A DNA stretch of 64,000 nucleotides, taken from the NCBI GenBank assembly GCA_048270185.1, contig JBLWTJ010000003.1, positions 64,001-128,000 on the forward strand. The letters are read 5' to 3'. Source of the stretch: Bacteriovoracaceae bacterium (GTDB taxonomy: Bacteria; Bdellovibrionota; Bacteriovoracia; Bacteriovoracales; Bacteriovoracaceae). Shown here in pieces: positions 48,626 through 55,781 of the stretch; position 1 is the first letter of the stretch; the number at the start of each line of letters is the position of its first letter. The position numbers and the translations under genes are program-made. The notes under the pieces were generated by a model that worked only from the letters and a program-made list of their open reading frames with translations, was not told where the DNA came from and did no database searches.

Positions 48626-49603
48626 ATGATTAGGGGTTTGGCCTTGGAGAAACTTAAAGATATTAACTGGAATCACCTTTATTGCTTCTATGAAGTTGCC
48701 AAGGTGCAGTCTTTGAAAAAAGGCGCACAAATTATTGGAACTTCGTCTCCAACTCTGAGTGAACAATTAAAGAGACTTGAAAATAAATTCAATATGAAGC
48801 TTTTTCATCGTAGTTCTAAGGGATTAAGTCTTACACCTGAGGGAACACTTCTCTTTGAAAAAACCAAAGGTATATTTGAAGAGGGAAGTAAGCTCCTTGA
48901 GCACTTTTCTGAGGATGTTGTAGGAGGTTATCCTGTCTCTATTGGCATAGAGGAGACGATCTCTCACGACTTGGCCACAGAGTTTGCCTCTCAGTATTGG
49001 GACCTATACACAAAGTACGGAACAGTTAATACTATTCGCCAAAGTGATCACGATATTCTCATTGATAATCTCTTGCGTGGAAATATTGACTGGGGAATTT
49101 CACTAAGAAAACCTAAGAGGAAGTCTCTTGAAGTAGCAGAGATCGGTTCATTTGAAATTGTCTTTTGTTGCTCAGAAGAGTTATTTAATAAATTTAAAGA
49201 CGTAAAAGATCTACTTGTTAATATTCCATTTGCAGAAAGTAATTGGGATAAAACTCTCAACAAGGTTATCTTTCAACACTTAAGAAAGAATGGTGTTGTT
49301 CCAAAAGAGAAGATCTACAGCGACCATATCGATTTTGTTCATAAACTCTGTGCTCGTGGACGTTGTGTCATGTTTCTGCCACGAAATCCACTAGAGGGCT
49401 ATGAGGGTATTAAAACTTTTCAATTAGATGAGCCACTAAAAATGTCTCTCTATGCTATTTGGAAGAAGTCTGATGAAGGACTTATTTCAATTCGTAAGTT
49501 ACAAGAGCTGTTTCAGACAAAATTATCGAATGTTCCAAAGCGCTATGAAGATGTGGACCTTCAAATTGAAGTTTCAGATGTTTCTGAAGATCTACTGCGT
49601 TAG
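48626..49603 (+). CDS. LysR-family transcriptional regulator (NhaR-like N-terminus)
   Basis: INWNHLYCFYEVA...SPTLSEQLKRLE...LFHR...LTPEG. Confidence 0.9.
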   Translation: MIRGLALEKLKDINWNHLYCFYEVAKVQSLKKGAQIIGTSSPTLSEQLKRLENKFNMKLFHRSSKGLSLTPEGTLLFEKTKGIFEEGSKLLEHFSEDVVGGYPVSIGIEETISHDLATEFASQYWDLYTKYGTVNTIRQSDHDILIDNLLRGNIDWGISLRKPKRKSLEVAEIGSFEIVFCCSEELFNKFKDVKDLLVNIPFAESNWDKTLNKVIFQHLRKNGVVPKEKIYSDHIDFVHKLCARGRCVMFLPRNPLEGYEGIKTFQLDEPLKMSLYAIWKKSDEGLISIRKLQELFQTKLSNVPKRYEDVDLQIEVSDVSEDLLR

Positions 49604-49671
49604 GACTCATTAAATTCTATTGGTAAAAAAGTTCGAGACATTTAAAACATTATCTTGCTAGAATCTGCTCG

Positions 49672-49959
49672 ATGTTAAGATTATTTAAGTATCTATTCAT
49701 TGCAATTTTCTTTGTTGCCTTTCTGGGGATTACAACTCACTCCCATGACGATGTTCATGAAAATGAGCGTATCCACCAAGCATGTACACTGTGTCTTCAT
49801 GTTACTCACACAATTGCCCTCGATGGACTTGATTCTCAAGATAGTGAGCTAGCAGATATTGACCTGCTCTATAATCAATTACCGTCAATATTCGTTTCTC
49901 CAATAATTTCTTCTCAGATTAATTTTTCATGCCGTAGTCGCGCACCTCCTGTTGTTTAA
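49672..49959 (+). CDS. DUF2946/CruR-like leader protein with His cluster, CxxC and C-terminal RAPP motif
   Basis: TM/signal segment, HSHDDVH, CTLC, SRAPPVV-stop; directly upstream of a metal uptake operon. Confidence 0.75.
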   Translation: MLRLFKYLFIAIFFVAFLGITTHSHDDVHENERIHQACTLCLHVTHTIALDGLDSQDSELADIDLLYNQLPSIFVSPIISSQINFSCRSRAPPVV

Positions 49960-50013
49960 TTAATTATTTTATTTTCTATTTTTAAATTTTAATTAATTAA
50001 CAAAGAGGTTACT

Positions 50014-51090
50014 TTGAAAAACTTTTTATATATTTCTATTTTATTACTTAACGCGCAAGTTTTTGCACAATCACTATCAAAAAACTCAAGAGGAAGCAGC
50101 TTCAATCCGGCCATCGGTCTAAATGCTCTTACTCTTTATAAGAACTCTAGCCGTGACAATCACGAAGATGGATTTCAACTTCAAGAAGCTGAACTTCAAT
50201 TTAGTGCGGATGTCGATGCTTACTTTAGAGCTGAGGCAACAATTGGAATTCACAAAGAGCATCATGAGGACGATGCAGCTGAAGAAGAGCATGGGTATGT
50301 TGTTGAACCTGAAGAGATCTTTGTTGAGACAATTTCAATTCCAGCAGTAACGATTAAGGCCGGGAAATTCTATACACAATTTGGAAAGTACAATATGGTT
50401 CACACTCATGCTCAACCATTTATTTACCGTGGTGTTGTTCAAGAGTATATGTTTGGACACGAAGGTCTTTCTGAAGTAGGTGTAAGTTTATCTTACCTCG
50501 CACCACTTCCATGGTTTAGCGATATCACTGTTCAAGTCCTACAGCCTACAAACGAAGAGTTATTTGAAGAGTGTCATCACTGTATTGCAACTGTTGCTAA
50601 TGTGAAGAATCTTTGGGATCTGTCTGACTCACTGACGTTAGAGTGGGGACTTTCTGGATTATATGCAGATAATGAAAATCATGATTCAGGACTTGATGAA
50701 AAAGTAACTGTTCTTGGCTCAGACCTTACATTCAAATGGCGACCAGTTAAAAATGGTAAAGACGCTTCTTTTATTTGGTCAACAGAGTTCATCCATAGAA
50801 ATCTTGAAGGAACTAAGGATGAGAAAAATGGTGGTGTTTCATCATTTATTCGCTACCAGCTATCTCAACGTTGGTATGCATCGGCCCAGTATGAATTCCT
50901 AGGTCTTGGAAAGGATGAGAATTTAGCAGATCAAAATGTTTACACAGGAGCACTATCTTTTGTTCCAACTGAGTTTTCAGCAGTTAGACTCCAGTATGAC
51001 CAGATTCATGATGGTGAAGAAAGAGAAGAGAGAAGAGTTTCAATGCAATTAAGCTTTAGCATTGGTGCTCACCCTGCACACGTTTACTAG
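50014..51090 (+). CDS. Porin-like outer-membrane protein associated with Zn/Mn uptake
   Basis: FNPAIG, FQLQEAEL..SADVDAY, His/acidic loop HKEHHEDD, C-terminal FSIGAHPAHVY; TTG start with GAGG RBS. Confidence 0.75.
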   Translation: MKNFLYISILLLNAQVFAQSLSKNSRGSSFNPAIGLNALTLYKNSSRDNHEDGFQLQEAELQFSADVDAYFRAEATIGIHKEHHEDDAAEEEHGYVVEPEEIFVETISIPAVTIKAGKFYTQFGKYNMVHTHAQPFIYRGVVQEYMFGHEGLSEVGVSLSYLAPLPWFSDITVQVLQPTNEELFEECHHCIATVANVKNLWDLSDSLTLEWGLSGLYADNENHDSGLDEKVTVLGSDLTFKWRPVKNGKDASFIWSTEFIHRNLEGTKDEKNGGVSSFIRYQLSQRWYASAQYEFLGLGKDENLADQNVYTGALSFVPTEFSAVRLQYDQIHDGEEREERRVSMQLSFSIGAHPAHVY

Positions 51091-51099
51091 GAGTATTAT

Positions 51100-51975
51100 A
51101 TGAAGTTACTAATAAGCTTATTAGTAAGTTTTAATATTTTTGCTTCGTTAAATGTTGTGACAACGACTTCTAATTTGGCCGCTGTTGCCAAAGAAATTGG
51201 GGGAGATAAGATTGATATTATCTCCCTTGCTAAAGGAAGTCAGGACCCACATTTTCTTGAAGCAAAACCAAGTTATACTTTTAAAGTAGCTAGGGCTGAT
51301 TTACTTATTAGTGTTGGCGCTGAATTAGAGATTGGTTGGCTTCCTCTTATTGTGAGAGGAAGTCGTAATCCTAAGTTAAGAGAGGGGAATATTGGTCGCC
51401 TTGTTGTCGCTGATAATATCGAACTAATTAAAGAGCATTCTGGTCCAATTTCACGTGCTCAAGGTGATGTTCACCCCGAGGGAAATCCTCACTTAATGCT
51501 TGGGCCTTCAAATAGTATCAAGGTTGCAAAGTTGATCCTTGATCGCTTTAGTAAACTTGATGCAGAAAATACTAAGTTCTACCAAGATCGCTTTGAAAGT
51601 TTTTCTAAGCGAATGAATAATCTCATCCTTGAGCTGAGAAAGAGTATTGTGGAAGGTAAGAAAATAATTACTTATCATCGAACACTGACTTACTTTCTTG
51701 CTGAGTTTGGTGTGAATACCTTGGAAGTCCTTGAACCAAAGCCAGGTATACCTCCGACAGCATCACATATTATCAATGTTATTAATATTGTTAAAACAAA
51801 TAAGCTTGATCGTATCATTGTTGAGAATTACTTTGATACTAGTGTTGCTCATCGAGTAAAGAAATCTGTCCCATCGATTAAAATTTTCAGTGTTCCTGTT
51901 GCCGTTAATGGCGATAAGGAGTCTGGTGATATCTTTAAGCTTTATCGCCAGATTGCAAAGGCATTGGTGAAGTAG
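51100..51975 (+). CDS. ZnuA/TroA-family metal ABC substrate-binding protein
   Basis: QDPHFLEAKP, GDVHPEGNPH, YHRT, EPKPGIPPT. Confidence 0.9.
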   Translation: MKLLISLLVSFNIFASLNVVTTTSNLAAVAKEIGGDKIDIISLAKGSQDPHFLEAKPSYTFKVARADLLISVGAELEIGWLPLIVRGSRNPKLREGNIGRLVVADNIELIKEHSGPISRAQGDVHPEGNPHLMLGPSNSIKVAKLILDRFSKLDAENTKFYQDRFESFSKRMNNLILELRKSIVEGKKIITYHRTLTYFLAEFGVNTLEVLEPKPGIPPTASHIINVINIVKTNKLDRIIVENYFDTSVAHRVKKSVPSIKIFSVPVAVNGDKESGDIFKLYRQIAKALVK

Positions 51976-52781
51976 TGGAAGTTCTAAGTTTCTTGGCCGC
52001 ACCATTTGTTATGTGTCTGATACTGGTAGGGATTCACTGCTATCTAGGACTTCACGTACTTAAAAGGGGAGTGATCTTTGTTGATCTCTCCCTGGCCCAA
52101 GTGGCCAGTCTTGGTTCCACTGTTGCCTTACTCTTTCACTTAGATCATCACAGTCCTCTTAATTACTTTATCTCATTAGGATTTACTTTCTGTGCGGCCG
52201 CTTACTTTGCATGGTCAAAGAAGTATGAAAAGTATATTTCACAAGAAGTCTTAATTGCTCTTGTTTATGCTTTTGCTTCTTCTGCTGTTATTTTAGTTGT
52301 TAATATGATGGCCCACGGGGCAGAGCATATTAAAGAAATTCTTATTGGAAAAATTCTTTGGGTAAGTTGGTCAGATGTTTTTAAAACAGGGGCCATCTAT
52401 AGTATTGTGGCCTTACTCCACTATATTTTTCGCAAACAATTATTTGCCGCGACTCATGAAGAGAAAGGTCAATCGGCCTTTTGGGATTTTCTCTTCTTTG
52501 CACTTTTTGGAGTTGTTATCACTTCATCTGTAGGAATTGCAGGGATTCTTCTCGTTTTCTCTTTCTTAGTTGTGCCAGCATTACTGAGCACCTTGATGAT
52601 GAAGACAATCAAGTCTCAGCTTCTTCTTGGTTGGGCAATAGGAAGTATACTCTCGCTCTTTGGAATGGCCTTAAGTTACTTCTTAGACCTTCCAGCTGGA
52701 GCTATTATTGTGGTGGTCTTCACTTGTGTTCCACTTATCAGTGTTCCATTCTTAATTAAGTTTAAAATAAGCCGTACCTAA
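51975..52781 (+). CDS. ZnuB-like metal ABC permease (ABC-3)
   Basis: HCYLGLHVLKRGVIFVDLSLAQ, GILLVFSFLVVPA, DLPAGA. Confidence 0.88.
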   Translation: MEVLSFLAAPFVMCLILVGIHCYLGLHVLKRGVIFVDLSLAQVASLGSTVALLFHLDHHSPLNYFISLGFTFCAAAYFAWSKKYEKYISQEVLIALVYAFASSAVILVVNMMAHGAEHIKEILIGKILWVSWSDVFKTGAIYSIVALLHYIFRKQLFAATHEEKGQSAFWDFLFFALFGVVITSSVGIAGILLVFSFLVVPALLSTLMMKTIKSQLLLGWAIGSILSLFGMALSYFLDLPAGAIIVVVFTCVPLISVPFLIKFKISRT

Positions 52782-52799
52782 TGGGTGCGGTAATTTTTT
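52771..52799 (+). terminator. Probable intrinsic terminator after the permease
   Basis: CCGTACC-loop-GGTGCGG stem followed by TAATTTTTT. Confidence 0.5.
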
Positions 52800-52873
52800 A
52801 GCTTTTTCTTTAGTTTACTATTTCACTTATCTGTTCGATGCGCCTGTTAAATATTTTAACAATCGGAGGAAAG

Positions 52874-53293
52874 ATGAAATTTATTATCCTAATGGTTTTC
52901 TTTATCACAACGGCATTTGCTTCAAAGGATTTAGGTGTTGTAACTGGAATTAGTATTACAGGTGAGATGGTCAGTTGTAAGAGTGATTCGACACCACAGT
53001 TTTGTACCATGGAGATTCAAATTGGTGATCTCTACGCTTATGAATGTCGTCAAAGAGGCCTAAAGGCACATCAATGTGCATGTCACGAATTTATCTGTTT
53101 AGAGGATGTTCAAGAAGAACAGATCTTTATTGGTGTTGATATCAATGGTGATGTCAGAGGTTGTTACGCCATGGACAAGAGAGTCAAGTGTAGTGAGGTT
53201 TTCGATTCGAATGATTTCTTTGCAGCTAATTGTCGAGAAGAAGGAAATGTGGCCATTCAATGTGGATGTCACGACTATATTTGTGTCAAATAA
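52874..53293 (+). CDS. Secreted protein with two tandem six-Cys repeats; start 52874
   Basis: RBS GGAGG; signal peptide; repeats each ending QCxCHxxIC. Confidence 0.75.
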   Translation: MKFIILMVFFITTAFASKDLGVVTGISITGEMVSCKSDSTPQFCTMEIQIGDLYAYECRQRGLKAHQCACHEFICLEDVQEEQIFIGVDINGDVRGCYAMDKRVKCSEVFDSNDFFAANCREEGNVAIQCGCHDYICVK

Positions 53294-53628: not shown

Positions 53629-53648
53629 TGAGGGGTTACAACCCCTCA
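53629..53648. terminator. Stem-loop between convergent genes
   Basis: TGAGGGGTT-AC-AACCCCTCA. Confidence 0.5.
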
Positions 53649-54043
53649 ACATCTTTACAAGACCAATCAAATGAATGAACCCCGTATTCTGGAATTCTCG
53701 CAAAGGTCCAAATATTTCCATCAATACCTTTACTTATATGATCGAGTCTAATTCTGAAATTACCTGTTGTGAAAGCTTCAACTTTTGCATCATACTTTGG
53801 ACGATAATTTACTTTTGTAAAATATGAATACTCTTTTGCTTGATTGATATCTTCGACAAAGACTTCAACTTCGTGGAAGACTCTTGTTCCTAACTTTGAT
53901 TCATAAATTAGGGCATCTGTTACTTTCGATTTTGTGTCATAATTGACACAATGATAGAGTGCCTGTCTTTTTGGATTAAGTCCCGCATAAGTATCTGCCA
54001 TAAATGCAATTGCTACAGCTAAGAGTAGTAAATTCTTCTTCAT
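53636..54043 (-). CDS. Secreted hypothetical protein
   Basis: Signal peptide; Cys near each end (YHC...WSC); RBS GGGAG. Confidence 0.7.
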   Translation of the reverse strand: MKKNLLLLAVAIAFMADTYAGLNPKRQALYHCVNYDTKSKVTDALIYESKLGTRVFHEVEVFVEDINQAKEYSYFTKVNYRPKYDAKVEAFTTGNFRIRLDHISKGIDGNIWTFARIPEYGVHSFDWSCKDVEGL

Positions 54044-54329: not shown

Positions 54330-55781
54330 ATGAAAAACCAAAGAATATACAGTGTAATAGCACTGGCAACAATCCTACTTCTCTTTATGCCAATTGGACT
54401 TTCTTCAGTAATGTTAGGAATTGGCCTTGGAGACAACCCCTGCATTCTATGCTGGCAAGAGAGAATGGCCATGATGCTAATTTCTGTTACCGGATTGTTT
54501 ATTATTCGATATGGACTTAGGCCTAAGTACCTGGCCCTAATGCTCTTCTTTTGTTGTTTTGGAATTTTTATGTCATTAAGACATGCTGGAGGACATTTCC
54601 TAAGAGATATCGGTCAAGGCTTTGCTTTGGAGGTATTTGGAATTCATACCTATACTTGGGGAGTGATCGTTTATTGGCTTACCCTTTTGGTGATCGCAAT
54701 TATTCTTGCTTTCTTTGGTAATGGCCTTGTCGATAATGAAGACGGTGAAATTCGTTATTTAACAAAATTTCAATCTTCTTCTTTTGTTGTTTTCTTCCTC
54801 GTTTTAAGTGTGAATGCTATACAGGCTTTTACTCAAGTTGGACCACCTCCTTTCTTGGGGCAAGGGGATCCAATTCGTTTTTCATGGGACCCAAAAGATT
54901 GGATATGGTCGACAAAGAAGTGGAATGGACTGATGGCCCCTTTAAGCTTTCGCGGTAATTATCATGTCGAATCACCACTTCGTGGCAATCGTATTTTTCG
55001 AGGTATTGCGATGTTTGAAAATGGTGATGATCTTCTCAAAGTAAAAGAAGTGGCACTGCCCGAAAGTATTGTAGGTGAAGTTAGGGATATGGACTATAAT
55101 CCGCAACAAAAGACGTTTGTCATAGTGACTGATAAATACTACGTCTATTTTCTTGATAGTAAACTAGAGAAGATAACGGCCTATGTTCACCTTGATCCTC
55201 TTTATTCCATTTCTATTAAAACTCTTGTTGGTGTTACTTTTATTTCACCAACGAGAGTCGTTGTCACTGGTTACAACAAATCATTTATTATTTTAAAACT
55301 TGATGAGAATGCAAAAATTAAAGATCAATATGCTAATTTCTTAGAAGGCAGTGATGGTATTCGTGAAATTCTTCGGGGCCGCTTTAGTACCGTAAGAGCA
55401 AAGTATTCTTATATACGATCTTTAACTTGGGATCGTCGTCGTAATGAACTAGTCTCTCTTACTGTTCCCAATAATAAGAATTCCAAAATTATCGCTTCAA
55501 ATTATTCAGATCAAGACTACGTATTAAATAGCGAAAAGGAAGTCTTTGTTAATGATGCAACTGCCGTTCCTATTATCACAAGTTTGAAAGTTCATAATTC
55601 AAGATTTTATGGACTAAATGCCGATGGCAAAGAGATTATTATTTCAGATAATGAGCTGGCAGGCTTTACGGGCTCCATTAAGTTACCACAGAAAGCAAAT
55701 TACAAGGCCATGGCCGTCTTTGATAGTGACCAATTTGTTATCATTGATGATAAGGTGGCCGGATTCTATATCAATAAGTAA
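54330..55781 (+). CDS. dsbI: DsbI-type DsbB-family disulfide bond formation protein with C-terminal beta-propeller
   Basis: GDNPCILCWQER, RDIGQGF, GIHTYTW, GPPPFLGQGDPIRFS. Confidence 0.88.
   Translation: MKNQRIYSVIALATILLLFMPIGLSSVMLGIGLGDNPCILCWQERMAMMLISVTGLFIIRYGLRPKYLALMLFFCCFGIFMSLRHAGGHFLRDIGQGFALEVFGIHTYTWGVIVYWLTLLVIAIILAFFGNGLVDNEDGEIRYLTKFQSSSFVVFFLVLSVNAIQAFTQVGPPPFLGQGDPIRFSWDPKDWIWSTKKWNGLMAPLSFRGNYHVESPLRGNRIFRGIAMFENGDDLLKVKEVALPESIVGEVRDMDYNPQQKTFVIVTDKYYVYFLDSKLEKITAYVHLDPLYSISIKTLVGVTFISPTRVVVTGYNKSFIILKLDENAKIKDQYANFLEGSDGIREILRGRFSTVRAKYSYIRSLTWDRRRNELVSLTVPNNKNSKIIASNYSDQDYVLNSEKEVFVNDATAVPIITSLKVHNSRFYGLNADGKEIIISDNELAGFTGSIKLPQKANYKAMAVFDSDQFVIIDDKVAGFYINK

Follow-up and report, generated by a model that had tools for sequence, protein, structure and literature searches.

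The 64,000-nucleotide (nt) stretch of the genome of a predatory marine Bacteriovoracaceae bacterium analysed here (the window; contig JBLWTJ010000003.1, positions 64,001 to 128,000 of the forward strand) contains a small open reading frame (ORF) of 95 codons plus stop in front of genes for an outer-membrane porin, a periplasmic metal-binding protein and a permease of the ATP-binding cassette (ABC) type. Judged by its sequence and those of its relatives, this ORF is a real, conserved gene and very probably a regulatory arrest leader of the kind known from CruR and CutF, located on a zinc-type uptake operon. The full reading, in which the ORF is a cis-acting leader of this DUF2946-like kind that switches the operon by ribosome stalling and unmasking of the Shine-Dalgarno (SD) sequence of the porin gene, is in our estimate the probable one. 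Since the leader combines the hallmarks of CruR and CutF with last codons that are predicted to pair with the porin SD, it probably switches metal uptake during its own translation. A first-pass annotation, made from the sequence alone, had outlined one feature at 49672..50013; the ORF is indeed there, ending at 49959, and the last 54 nt are intergenic. The leader and its parts are:

49672..49959 (+), leader ORF, candidate CruR/CutF-like metal-sensing arrest peptide (ORF call, homologues, Pfam and profile comparison)
49684..49734 (+), residues 5-21, hydrophobic, either export signal or N-in membrane anchor (sequence inspection)
49738..49746 (+), H23-S-H25, invariant HxH followed by acidic residues and H29 (12 of 12 aligned sequences)
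49783..49794 (+), C38-T-L-C41, invariant CxxC (12 of 12 aligned sequences)
49795..49938 (+), 48-residue spacer, kept in length and not in sequence (homologue comparison)
49939..49950 (+), R90-A-P-P93 (CGC GCA CCT CCT), predicted arrest site; R and both P invariant, A or G between them

The ORF list and translation contain each element claimed in the first pass, namely a 95-residue ORF with an export or transmembrane segment, a His cluster, CTLC and a terminal RAPPVV. The spacer, put there at about 45 residues, has to be corrected, as 48 featureless residues were counted between C41 and R90. Near the N-terminus, R3 and K6 are accompanied by a 17-residue hydrophobic stretch (residues 5-21), and a segment of comparable kind is visible in 37 related leaders, so that by its sequence the protein appears to carry the N-terminal signal peptide or N-in transmembrane segment that characterizes DUF2946 and CruR. 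Residues 23-35, HSHDDVHENERIH, begin with H23-S-H25-D-D-V-H29 and contain more His thereafter. At the other end, RAPP occupies residues 90-93 and is directly followed by VV and the stop codon; by analogy with the toeprint of CruR (PMC12992588), Pro92 is predicted to occupy the P-site and Pro93 the A-site at arrest. Among the 11,889 ORFs of 40-200 amino acids in the 3.35-Mb genome, this leader is the only one with R[AG]PP followed by at most eight residues at the C-terminus, and the motif is for that reason beyond what chance would provide.

The conservation of the leader was followed with several kinds of search. A word-indexed protein search returned the query itself as sole match, both for the window leader and for L065, a relative that passes the Pfam cut-off for DUF2946. 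Six-frame searching of 41 genomes recovered orthologues of 95-97 amino acids, at E 2.5e-10 to 1.2e-7, from five additional genomes of the genus; a profile search of 301 genomes of the phylum extended the leader to two more genera of the bacterial family, and the leader profile matched six proteins at E ≤ 0.001, four of them new, among 1.84 billion representatives. In an alignment of 12 leaders only H23, H25, C38, C41, R90, P92 and P93 are invariant. Position 91 is either A or G, giving an interchange of RAPP and RGPP, and the Arg and Pro codons of R[AG]PP differ synonymously among loci, which means that selection works on the peptide. Although the stretch from CxxC to R[AG]PP cannot be aligned, its length is 48 residues without deviation in 12 sequences, which come from at least three genera. 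More widely, the length of the spacer is set by clade, at 44, 45, 47 or 48 residues, while its sequence drifts. A fixed length combined with an unalignable sequence is the pattern expected from a ruler and not from a folded domain.

A survey of porin loci, in which one genome per species was searched with an alignment of the porin, gave 51 loci, nearly all of them labelled Bdellovibrionota (Halobacteriovorax, Bacteriovorax, Bdellovibrio, Pseudobdellovibrio and many metagenome-assembled genomes). On this basis the window organism is assigned to Halobacteriovorax. A small ORF ending in R[AG]PP plus 1-8 residues lies upstream of the porin in 35 of the 51, including one doubtful case, L079, at 400 nt from the porin. 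Leaders with RRPP, RKPP or RDPP were found at three further loci, no such ORF at 11, and at two the flank was too short to judge. CxxC is present in 27 of the 38 RxPP leaders, the other 11 having different His/Cys arrangements; within the 27, the distance from CxxC to the Arg is 48 residues in six leaders, 47 in six, 45 in four and 44 in 11. Two genomes of the genus (G006, locus L117, and G005, locus L119) have a porin 48% identical to that of the window and a leader that lacks CxxC; it contains His residues and a single Cys and keeps the RGPP end, and the gene on its 5' side encodes the C-terminus of an efflux pump of the resistance-nodulation-division type.

The first-pass annotation had described the ORF as an analogue of CruR/DUF2946, a view that the profile comparisons uphold. 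DUF2946 (PF11162) is the Pfam family of CruR and CutF and has a gathering score of 23.7 bits. The window leader scores 16.3 bits (E 0.018) over profile positions 48-117 of 117, that is, the C-terminal 70 positions, and by Pfam's own criterion it is not a member of DUF2946. DUF2946 was found at E ≤ 0.1 in 15 of the 38 related leaders, always aligned up to the end of the profile, and one of the 38, L065, passes the cut-off with 24.5 bits, L075 falling 0.1 bit short at 23.6; besides DUF2946, no family recurs in the Pfam scan of the 38 leaders. Alignment of profiles with hhalign joined the group with 48-residue spacers to the group with spacers of 44 or 45, which holds L065 and L075 (84.3% probability, E 7.2e-6). 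In Protein Atlas the nearest named cluster is DUF2946 (score 0.92), which can be taken as a lead only. On these sequence comparisons we treat the gene as a divergent branch of the CruR/CutF-like superfamily, a sub-threshold relative of DUF2946. With that family it has in common CXXC (C38-T-L-C41), RAPP a few residues before the C-terminus, and a place as first gene of a metal-homeostasis operon, with a promoter-like site on its 5' side and a terminator-like site after the permease gene. The number of spacer residues differs from that of DUF2946; the ruler principle holds, the length being fixed within each clade.

The genes behind the leader were assigned with Pfam/NCBIfam and, in the case of the porin, with a structure model. 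They agree with the earlier claim of a porin and ABC components downstream:

50014..51090 (+), outer-membrane porin with a TTG start and 16 predicted strands, not a TonB-dependent receptor (Pfam, structure model)
51100..51975 (+), periplasmic metal-binding protein of cluster A-I (ZnuA family), ligand positions H51, H131, H193 and D246 (PF01297, E 2.1e-43)
51975..52781 (+), ABC-3 (ZnuB-type) permease (PF00950, E 1.1e-23)
52771..52801 (+), terminator-like hairpin with T-run where the permease gene ends, probably also closing the operon (terminator scan)

The porin matches Porin_O_P just under the cut-off (E 3.6e-4). Its model (mean predicted local distance difference test score 76) has 16 strands and is similar, at TM-scores of 0.5-0.6, to classical porins with 16 strands, among them chitoporin, OmpT/OmpU and OprP, in agreement with the earlier description of it as a non-TonB porin. 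Between strands 3 and 4, residues 80-95 (50251-50298) form a His/Glu-rich stretch, HKEHHEDDAAEEEHG, of low model confidence, and the consensus of the porin family has an acidic/His-rich stretch of comparable kind; this segment could be a loop that gathers metal. Behind the porin, 50 of the 51 loci have a ZnuA-type gene and 47 an ABC-3 permease gene, the rest being cut by contig ends. Leader, porin, binding protein and permease thus form an operon unit whose linkage is conserved.

The metal handled by this operon was assessed from the ligands of its proteins. In binding proteins of cluster A-I, three His and a carboxylate make up a zinc-type site, as in ZnuA, AztC and TroA, and His2-Glu-Asp a manganese-type site. 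Compared with PsaA (PDB 1psz), the window protein keeps both His ligands and the Asp and has His at the position of PsaA Glu205. H51, H131 and H193 occur without exception in the 49 binding proteins compared; at position 246, 41 of them have Asp and six have Glu. This His3-Asp site suggests zinc, in line with the first-pass view of zinc as the probable metal, and the HxH and CxxC of the leader would offer a Cys2His2 set, which is typical of Zn(II). Both sets of ligands argue against the alternative that the leader works as proposed and senses copper, or nickel or cobalt, with the operon importing that metal. The operon also lacks the copper chaperone, oxidase or PCuAC genes that are usual beside DUF2946. 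We consider this alternative unlikely, although it can draw on CruR and CutF being copper sensors with Cys motifs, on the His-only CutF-like clusters that adjoin nickel/cobalt genes, and on the N-terminus of X-X-His, Cu/Ni-like type that could arise if a signal peptidase were assumed to cut just before HxH.

No gene of the Fur family (PF01475, E ≤ 0.001) was found in this 95.9%-complete genome, and none of the Fur/Zur family in three genomes of the genus that are 99% complete and carry the leader. The first pass had seen no Zur box, which is consistent with this result; given that no Fur-family gene was found, a Zur box cannot be derived for this genome. One orthologue (in G066) has a TGTTA-N7-TAACA repeat about 75 nt upstream, which was considered as a Zur box and set aside as too isolated to carry weight. 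Fur-family genes are present in six of 12 genomes of the genus. In the five of these that were examined (G001, G004, G008, G010 and G021) the Fur gene lies within about 3 kb of a distant porin paralogue (27-29% identity), and the two paralogue loci inspected, in G001 and G008, have no R[AG]PP leader upstream. The leader and the Fur-family gene look like two alternative ways of controlling related porins.

The read-out of the leader was approached through the RNA that joins it to the porin gene. Here the inverted repeat has two arms of 19 nt, 84% complementary to each other:

49948..49966 (+), 5' arm of the hairpin, comprising the Pro93 codon, VV, the stop codon and the start of the intergenic spacer, with anti-SD character (inverted repeat, fold)
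49990..50008 (+), 3' hairpin arm with the porin SD, GAGG (50005-50008), at its end (inverted repeat, fold)

An inverted repeat had previously been noted at about 49953-50002 as abutting the SD. The repeat is real; it is larger than described, includes the SD and reaches the Pro93 codon. The minimum free energy fold of 49936-50030 has -13.7 kcal/mol (z -2.33, one of 200 shuffles as good) and adds pairs from 49944 onwards. In the free mRNA the predicted probability that the porin SD is unpaired is 0.0055, among the lowest 4% of 500 SD-bearing genes of the genome (median 0.43). A ribosome covers the mRNA from P-12 to P+15, and this footprint was adopted in the calculations. With 150 nt of the leader included, the probability that the porin SD pairs inside the footprint is 0.965. 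With Pro92 placed in the P-site after the CruR toeprint (PMC12992588), masking of the mRNA as far as +11 to +15 from that codon raised the unpaired probability of the SD to 0.66-0.69. Unmasking of the SD by a stalled ribosome is thus well supported at the window locus on thermodynamic grounds, and the predicted pairing corresponds to an SD-shielding stem-loop of the CutF type.

The same test was extended to related loci. The best single partner of the SD is the arrest window in 16 of 36 loci, each offering about 150-230 alternative windows; with 150 nt of upstream context the probability of a partner in the footprint exceeds 0.5 in 16 of the 36 and 0.25 in 22. An earlier version of the test with too little upstream context had given 11 of 11 loci, an overstatement, and contexts of 90-150 nt reduced this to about half. 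A comparison of 49300-50400 with Rfam gave no family at E ≤ 1, which means that the region is no riboswitch or leader RNA of a known kind. The idea of an intrinsic terminator between leader and porin was dropped, as the terminator scan found none there.

As modelled, the arrangement resembles SD unmasking of the CutF/SecM type more closely than the Rho-dependent attenuation of CruR. A transcriptional read-out as in CruR, in which the same metal-sensing leader would stall a ribosome that blocks Rho, Rho would terminate ahead of or inside the porin gene once the stall is released, and the hairpin would be incidental, is in our view distinctly unlikely. The intergenic region has 54 nt, compared with 162 nt in B. 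pertussis, and 11% G+C, and is ill suited to provide a rut site; the window SD is almost fully paired to the arrest codons, with no intrinsic terminator found between leader and porin. What keeps this explanation under consideration is that CruR, the closest characterized relative with RAPP and CXXC, works in this way (PMC9426467), that Rho polarity could in any event act on a porin mRNA that is not translated, and that for 14 of 36 related loci the SD is predicted to pair outside the footprint of the ribosome.

Transcription of the leader was examined for the position of its start:

49635..49664 (+), promoter-like site of the extended -10 type, with GAGACA, an 18-nt spacer and TAGAAT, the TG being at 49656-49657 (promoter scan, 9 of 12)

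The -10 element ends 7 nt upstream of the ATG with no SD between them, and this spacing predicts a leaderless leader mRNA, which we regard as likely at the window locus. Each of the 8 loci examined in the bacterial family has the layout TGnTAnnnT plus 7 nt plus ATG, against a background of 0.15% of all ATGs in the genome. The 38 leaders of the survey include 36 without an SD, and in 20 a TAnnnT ends 5-9 nt upstream of the start codon, which suggests leaderless mRNAs as a trait of the leader family.

Taken together, the preferred reading of SD unmasking by an arrest leader would operate as follows. Transcription would begin at the promoter whose -10 ends 7 nt before the ATG, giving an mRNA that is probably leaderless, and the N-terminal hydrophobic segment would take the nascent chain to the membrane. 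At R90-A-P-P93 translation would pause, the P-site holding Pro92 and the A-site Pro93. As long as the mRNA is free, the Pro-Pro, Val-Val and stop codons and the first intergenic bases would hide the porin SD by pairing; a ribosome parked at RAPP would cover the 5' arm and leave the SD free, so that the porin, ZnuA-type and ABC-3 genes could be translated. Given the fixed 48 residues before the arrest motif, HxH and CxxC would at this moment stand just outside the ribosomal tunnel, or outside the SecYEG channel if the chain is exported. There they would hold the metal that is transported, most likely Zn(II) in a Cys2His2 site, and the compaction induced by the metal would pull on the chain and release the arrest, after which termination would allow the hairpin to re-form and uptake would be turned off. 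The model joins the sign of CruR, where metal releases the stall, to an RNA read-out of the CutF/SecM type. We infer the sign from a single circumstance, the cargo being an importer.

It could be argued instead that the small protein is a stable subunit, either a membrane-anchored periplasmic metallochaperone or an accessory of the porin or transporter, whose RAPP end has no regulatory role. Its export signal, its metal-binding motif and its constant co-encoding with a transporter would suit such a protein. The conservation pattern makes this improbable, with seven residues kept and a 48-residue stretch that is unalignable yet fixed in length, as in a ruler; moreover, no other small ORF of the genome has R[AG]PP within its last 12 residues, and neither CutF nor CruR is detectable as a protein in cells (PMC9973294, PMC9426467). 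An arrest peptide that monitors Sec/YidC in the manner of ApdA, ApdP or SecM, reporting export capacity and not metal, can practically be dismissed, for despite the C-terminal R[AG]PP and N-terminal export signal shared with ApdA and ApdP, the genes downstream encode a porin and a metal importer and not sec or yidC, and HxH and CxxC are invariant.

Several observations weigh against the arrest-leader reading, or parts of it. The window leader remains under the Pfam gathering score (16.3 against 23.7 bits), its spacer of 48 lies outside the DUF2946 range of 45 ± 2 (PMC9426467), and 11 of the 51 homologous porin loci have no such leader. The family members characterized so far sense copper and not zinc, and in CutF the metal increases stalling, contrary to the sign that our reading assumes. 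The transporter is incomplete in composition, as there is no ABC ATPase gene in the window operon and no ZnuC equivalog in the genome (best match to the ZnuC model 91 bits, cut-off 306). An ORF with Walker-A and signature motifs was seen within 3 kb in only two of the 51 related porin loci (L046-L096). Among candidate partners, the ZnuC model retrieves only generic ABC ATPases, the best of which belongs to an ABC-2 system, and the second ABC-3-like match of the genome belongs to a FecCD-type system; both were rejected. With respect to the RNA, the SD partner lies 5' of the footprint in nine of the 36 loci and 3' of it in five (probability above 0.5 in each), so that SD unmasking is not predicted for the family as a whole. 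Covariation in the hairpin is weak: from six genus-level sequences, which represent only three lineages, RNAalifold recovered the consensus helix with two of 20 consensus pairs compensatory and a covariation term of +1.42. Finally, CCN CCN codons for Pro-Pro are anti-SD-like by nature, and some pairing with an SD is therefore to be expected without selection.

Metal sensing by a nascent, ribosome-arresting leader is demonstrated only for copper, in CruR and CutF. This locus and many relatives tie the CruR/CutF device to a zinc-type ABC importer and a dedicated porin, in a genome with no detected Fur/Zur regulator and in a phylum, Bdellovibrionota, that is not mentioned in the main texts and searched supplementary files of the CruR, CutF and RAPP/RGPP papers. 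If the reading is correct, the nascent-leader mechanism would be a general strategy of metal sensing, zinc uptake would be controllable at the level of translation, and a fixed peptide ruler would couple a metal site to the peptidyl-transferase centre. Such regulation escapes genome annotation and the prediction of regulons from Zur boxes, because the leaders are mostly unannotated or labelled hypothetical. More tentatively, we put forward as a possibility a wider scheme in which Halobacteriovorax and many other Bdellovibrionota would need no DNA-binding zinc sensor to control the import of zinc. In this scheme a leaderless mRNA would encode a nascent Cys2His2 zinc site 48 residues from R[AG]PP, about the length of the ribosomal tunnel plus SecYEG; the translating ribosome would read periplasmic zinc across the membrane, and folding around zinc would release the arrest and re-close the SD-masking hairpin. 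The leader would then be a natural counterpart of the zinc-finger/SecM force-sensor experiments that have reportedly been carried out with engineered constructs.

The surroundings of the operon are as follows. A gene for a LysR-family regulator (48626-49603, +) ends 68 nt upstream of the leader. Its neighbourhood is kept in five other genomes of the genus, but there a gene for a 474-amino-acid lipoprotein lies between LysR and the leader; the window genome lacks this gene. Downstream of the permease are genes for a 151-amino-acid secreted Cys-rich protein with two similar halves and no family match (52838-53293, +), a 135-amino-acid secreted protein of no known family (53636-54043, -) and a 483-amino-acid protein in which an N-terminal DsbB domain is fused to a long C-terminal part (54330-55781, +). 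The second and third of these keep their position in the five related genomes examined, and the Cys-rich gene was seen only in G002.

With regard to published systems, full-text literature searches on RAPP arrest peptides, DUF2946 and CruR in connection with zinc or znuA returned no paper on a zinc-linked leader. Zinc, porins, ABC transporters and Bdellovibrio are not mentioned in the main texts of the CutF and CruR papers (PMC9973294, PMC9426467), nor is ZnuA in the main text of PMC9973294; the supplement text searched for both papers contains no match to ZnuA, PF01297 or Bdellovibrio, the CutF neighbour table (File S1) being outside that text. The main text of PMC12992588 does not mention zinc, porins, ABC transporters or Bdellovibrionota. 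The pairing of R[AG]PP upstream ORFs with porins is catalogued in rows of its supplement and, as porin, zinc and ABC transporter are missing from the main text, is not interpreted there. According to that study RAPP and RGPP are the strongest arrest cores. ApdA, ApdP and related upstream ORFs resemble the window leader in that their products are small, exported or membrane-bound, and have the same arrest core close to the C-terminus (PMC12992588). The characterized ApdA/ApdP-type peptides monitor Sec/YidC, whereas the genes after the window leader encode a porin, a binding protein and a permease and not Sec or YidC. The operon resembles ZnuABC/Zur systems in its ZnuA-family binding protein with three His ligands and its ABC-3 permease; it differs from them in having no ATPase gene of its own, with no ZnuC equivalog and no Fur/Zur gene found in the genome, and in including a dedicated porin and a leader.

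CutF of Rhodobacter capsulatus, whose system includes an SD-shielding stem-loop (PMC9973294), is the closer parallel for the RNA. It is a nascent metal sensor of the DUF2946-like superfamily, targeted to Sec, whose stalling near the C-terminus melts the stem-loop that shields the SD of the next gene (PMC9973294; bioRxiv 10.1101/2025.02.05.636593). CutF has CxxxC and a Pro-rich end of the PPP type, with involvement of elongation factor P, where the window leader has CxxC and RAPP. It controls a detoxifying oxidase, and copper prolongs the stalling, so that metal turns expression on; the operon studied here encodes an importer, and for this reason the opposite sign is expected.

CruR (Bp2923) of Bordetella pertussis, the prototype of DUF2946/PF11162, requires CXXC and RAPP, is sensitive to their spacing, and is released from its stall by metal, with Rho-dependent attenuation as the read-out (PMC9426467); it arrests in vitro with codons 3 and 4 of the motif in the P and A sites (PMC12992588). 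The window leader differs from it in scoring under the Pfam cut-off, in a spacer of 48 and not 45 residues and in the additional invariant HxH, and most of its close relatives have RGPP in place of RAPP. The cargo is a 16-strand porin with a ZnuA-type binding protein and an ABC-3 permease instead of a TonB-dependent transporter and a PepSY protein, the intergenic region is an AU-rich, predicted SD-sequestering segment of 54 nt instead of the Rho-dependent 162 nt of B. pertussis, and the likely metal is zinc instead of copper, in the phylum Bdellovibrionota. In other respects the likeness is close. Both are the small first gene of a metal-uptake operon and have an N-terminal export signal, CXXC, a long spacer of fixed length and RAPP two to three residues from the stop codon, and in both an outer-membrane uptake protein is encoded next. 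The logic expected of the window leader is likewise that of CruR: stalling would turn the operon on, and metal would release the stall.

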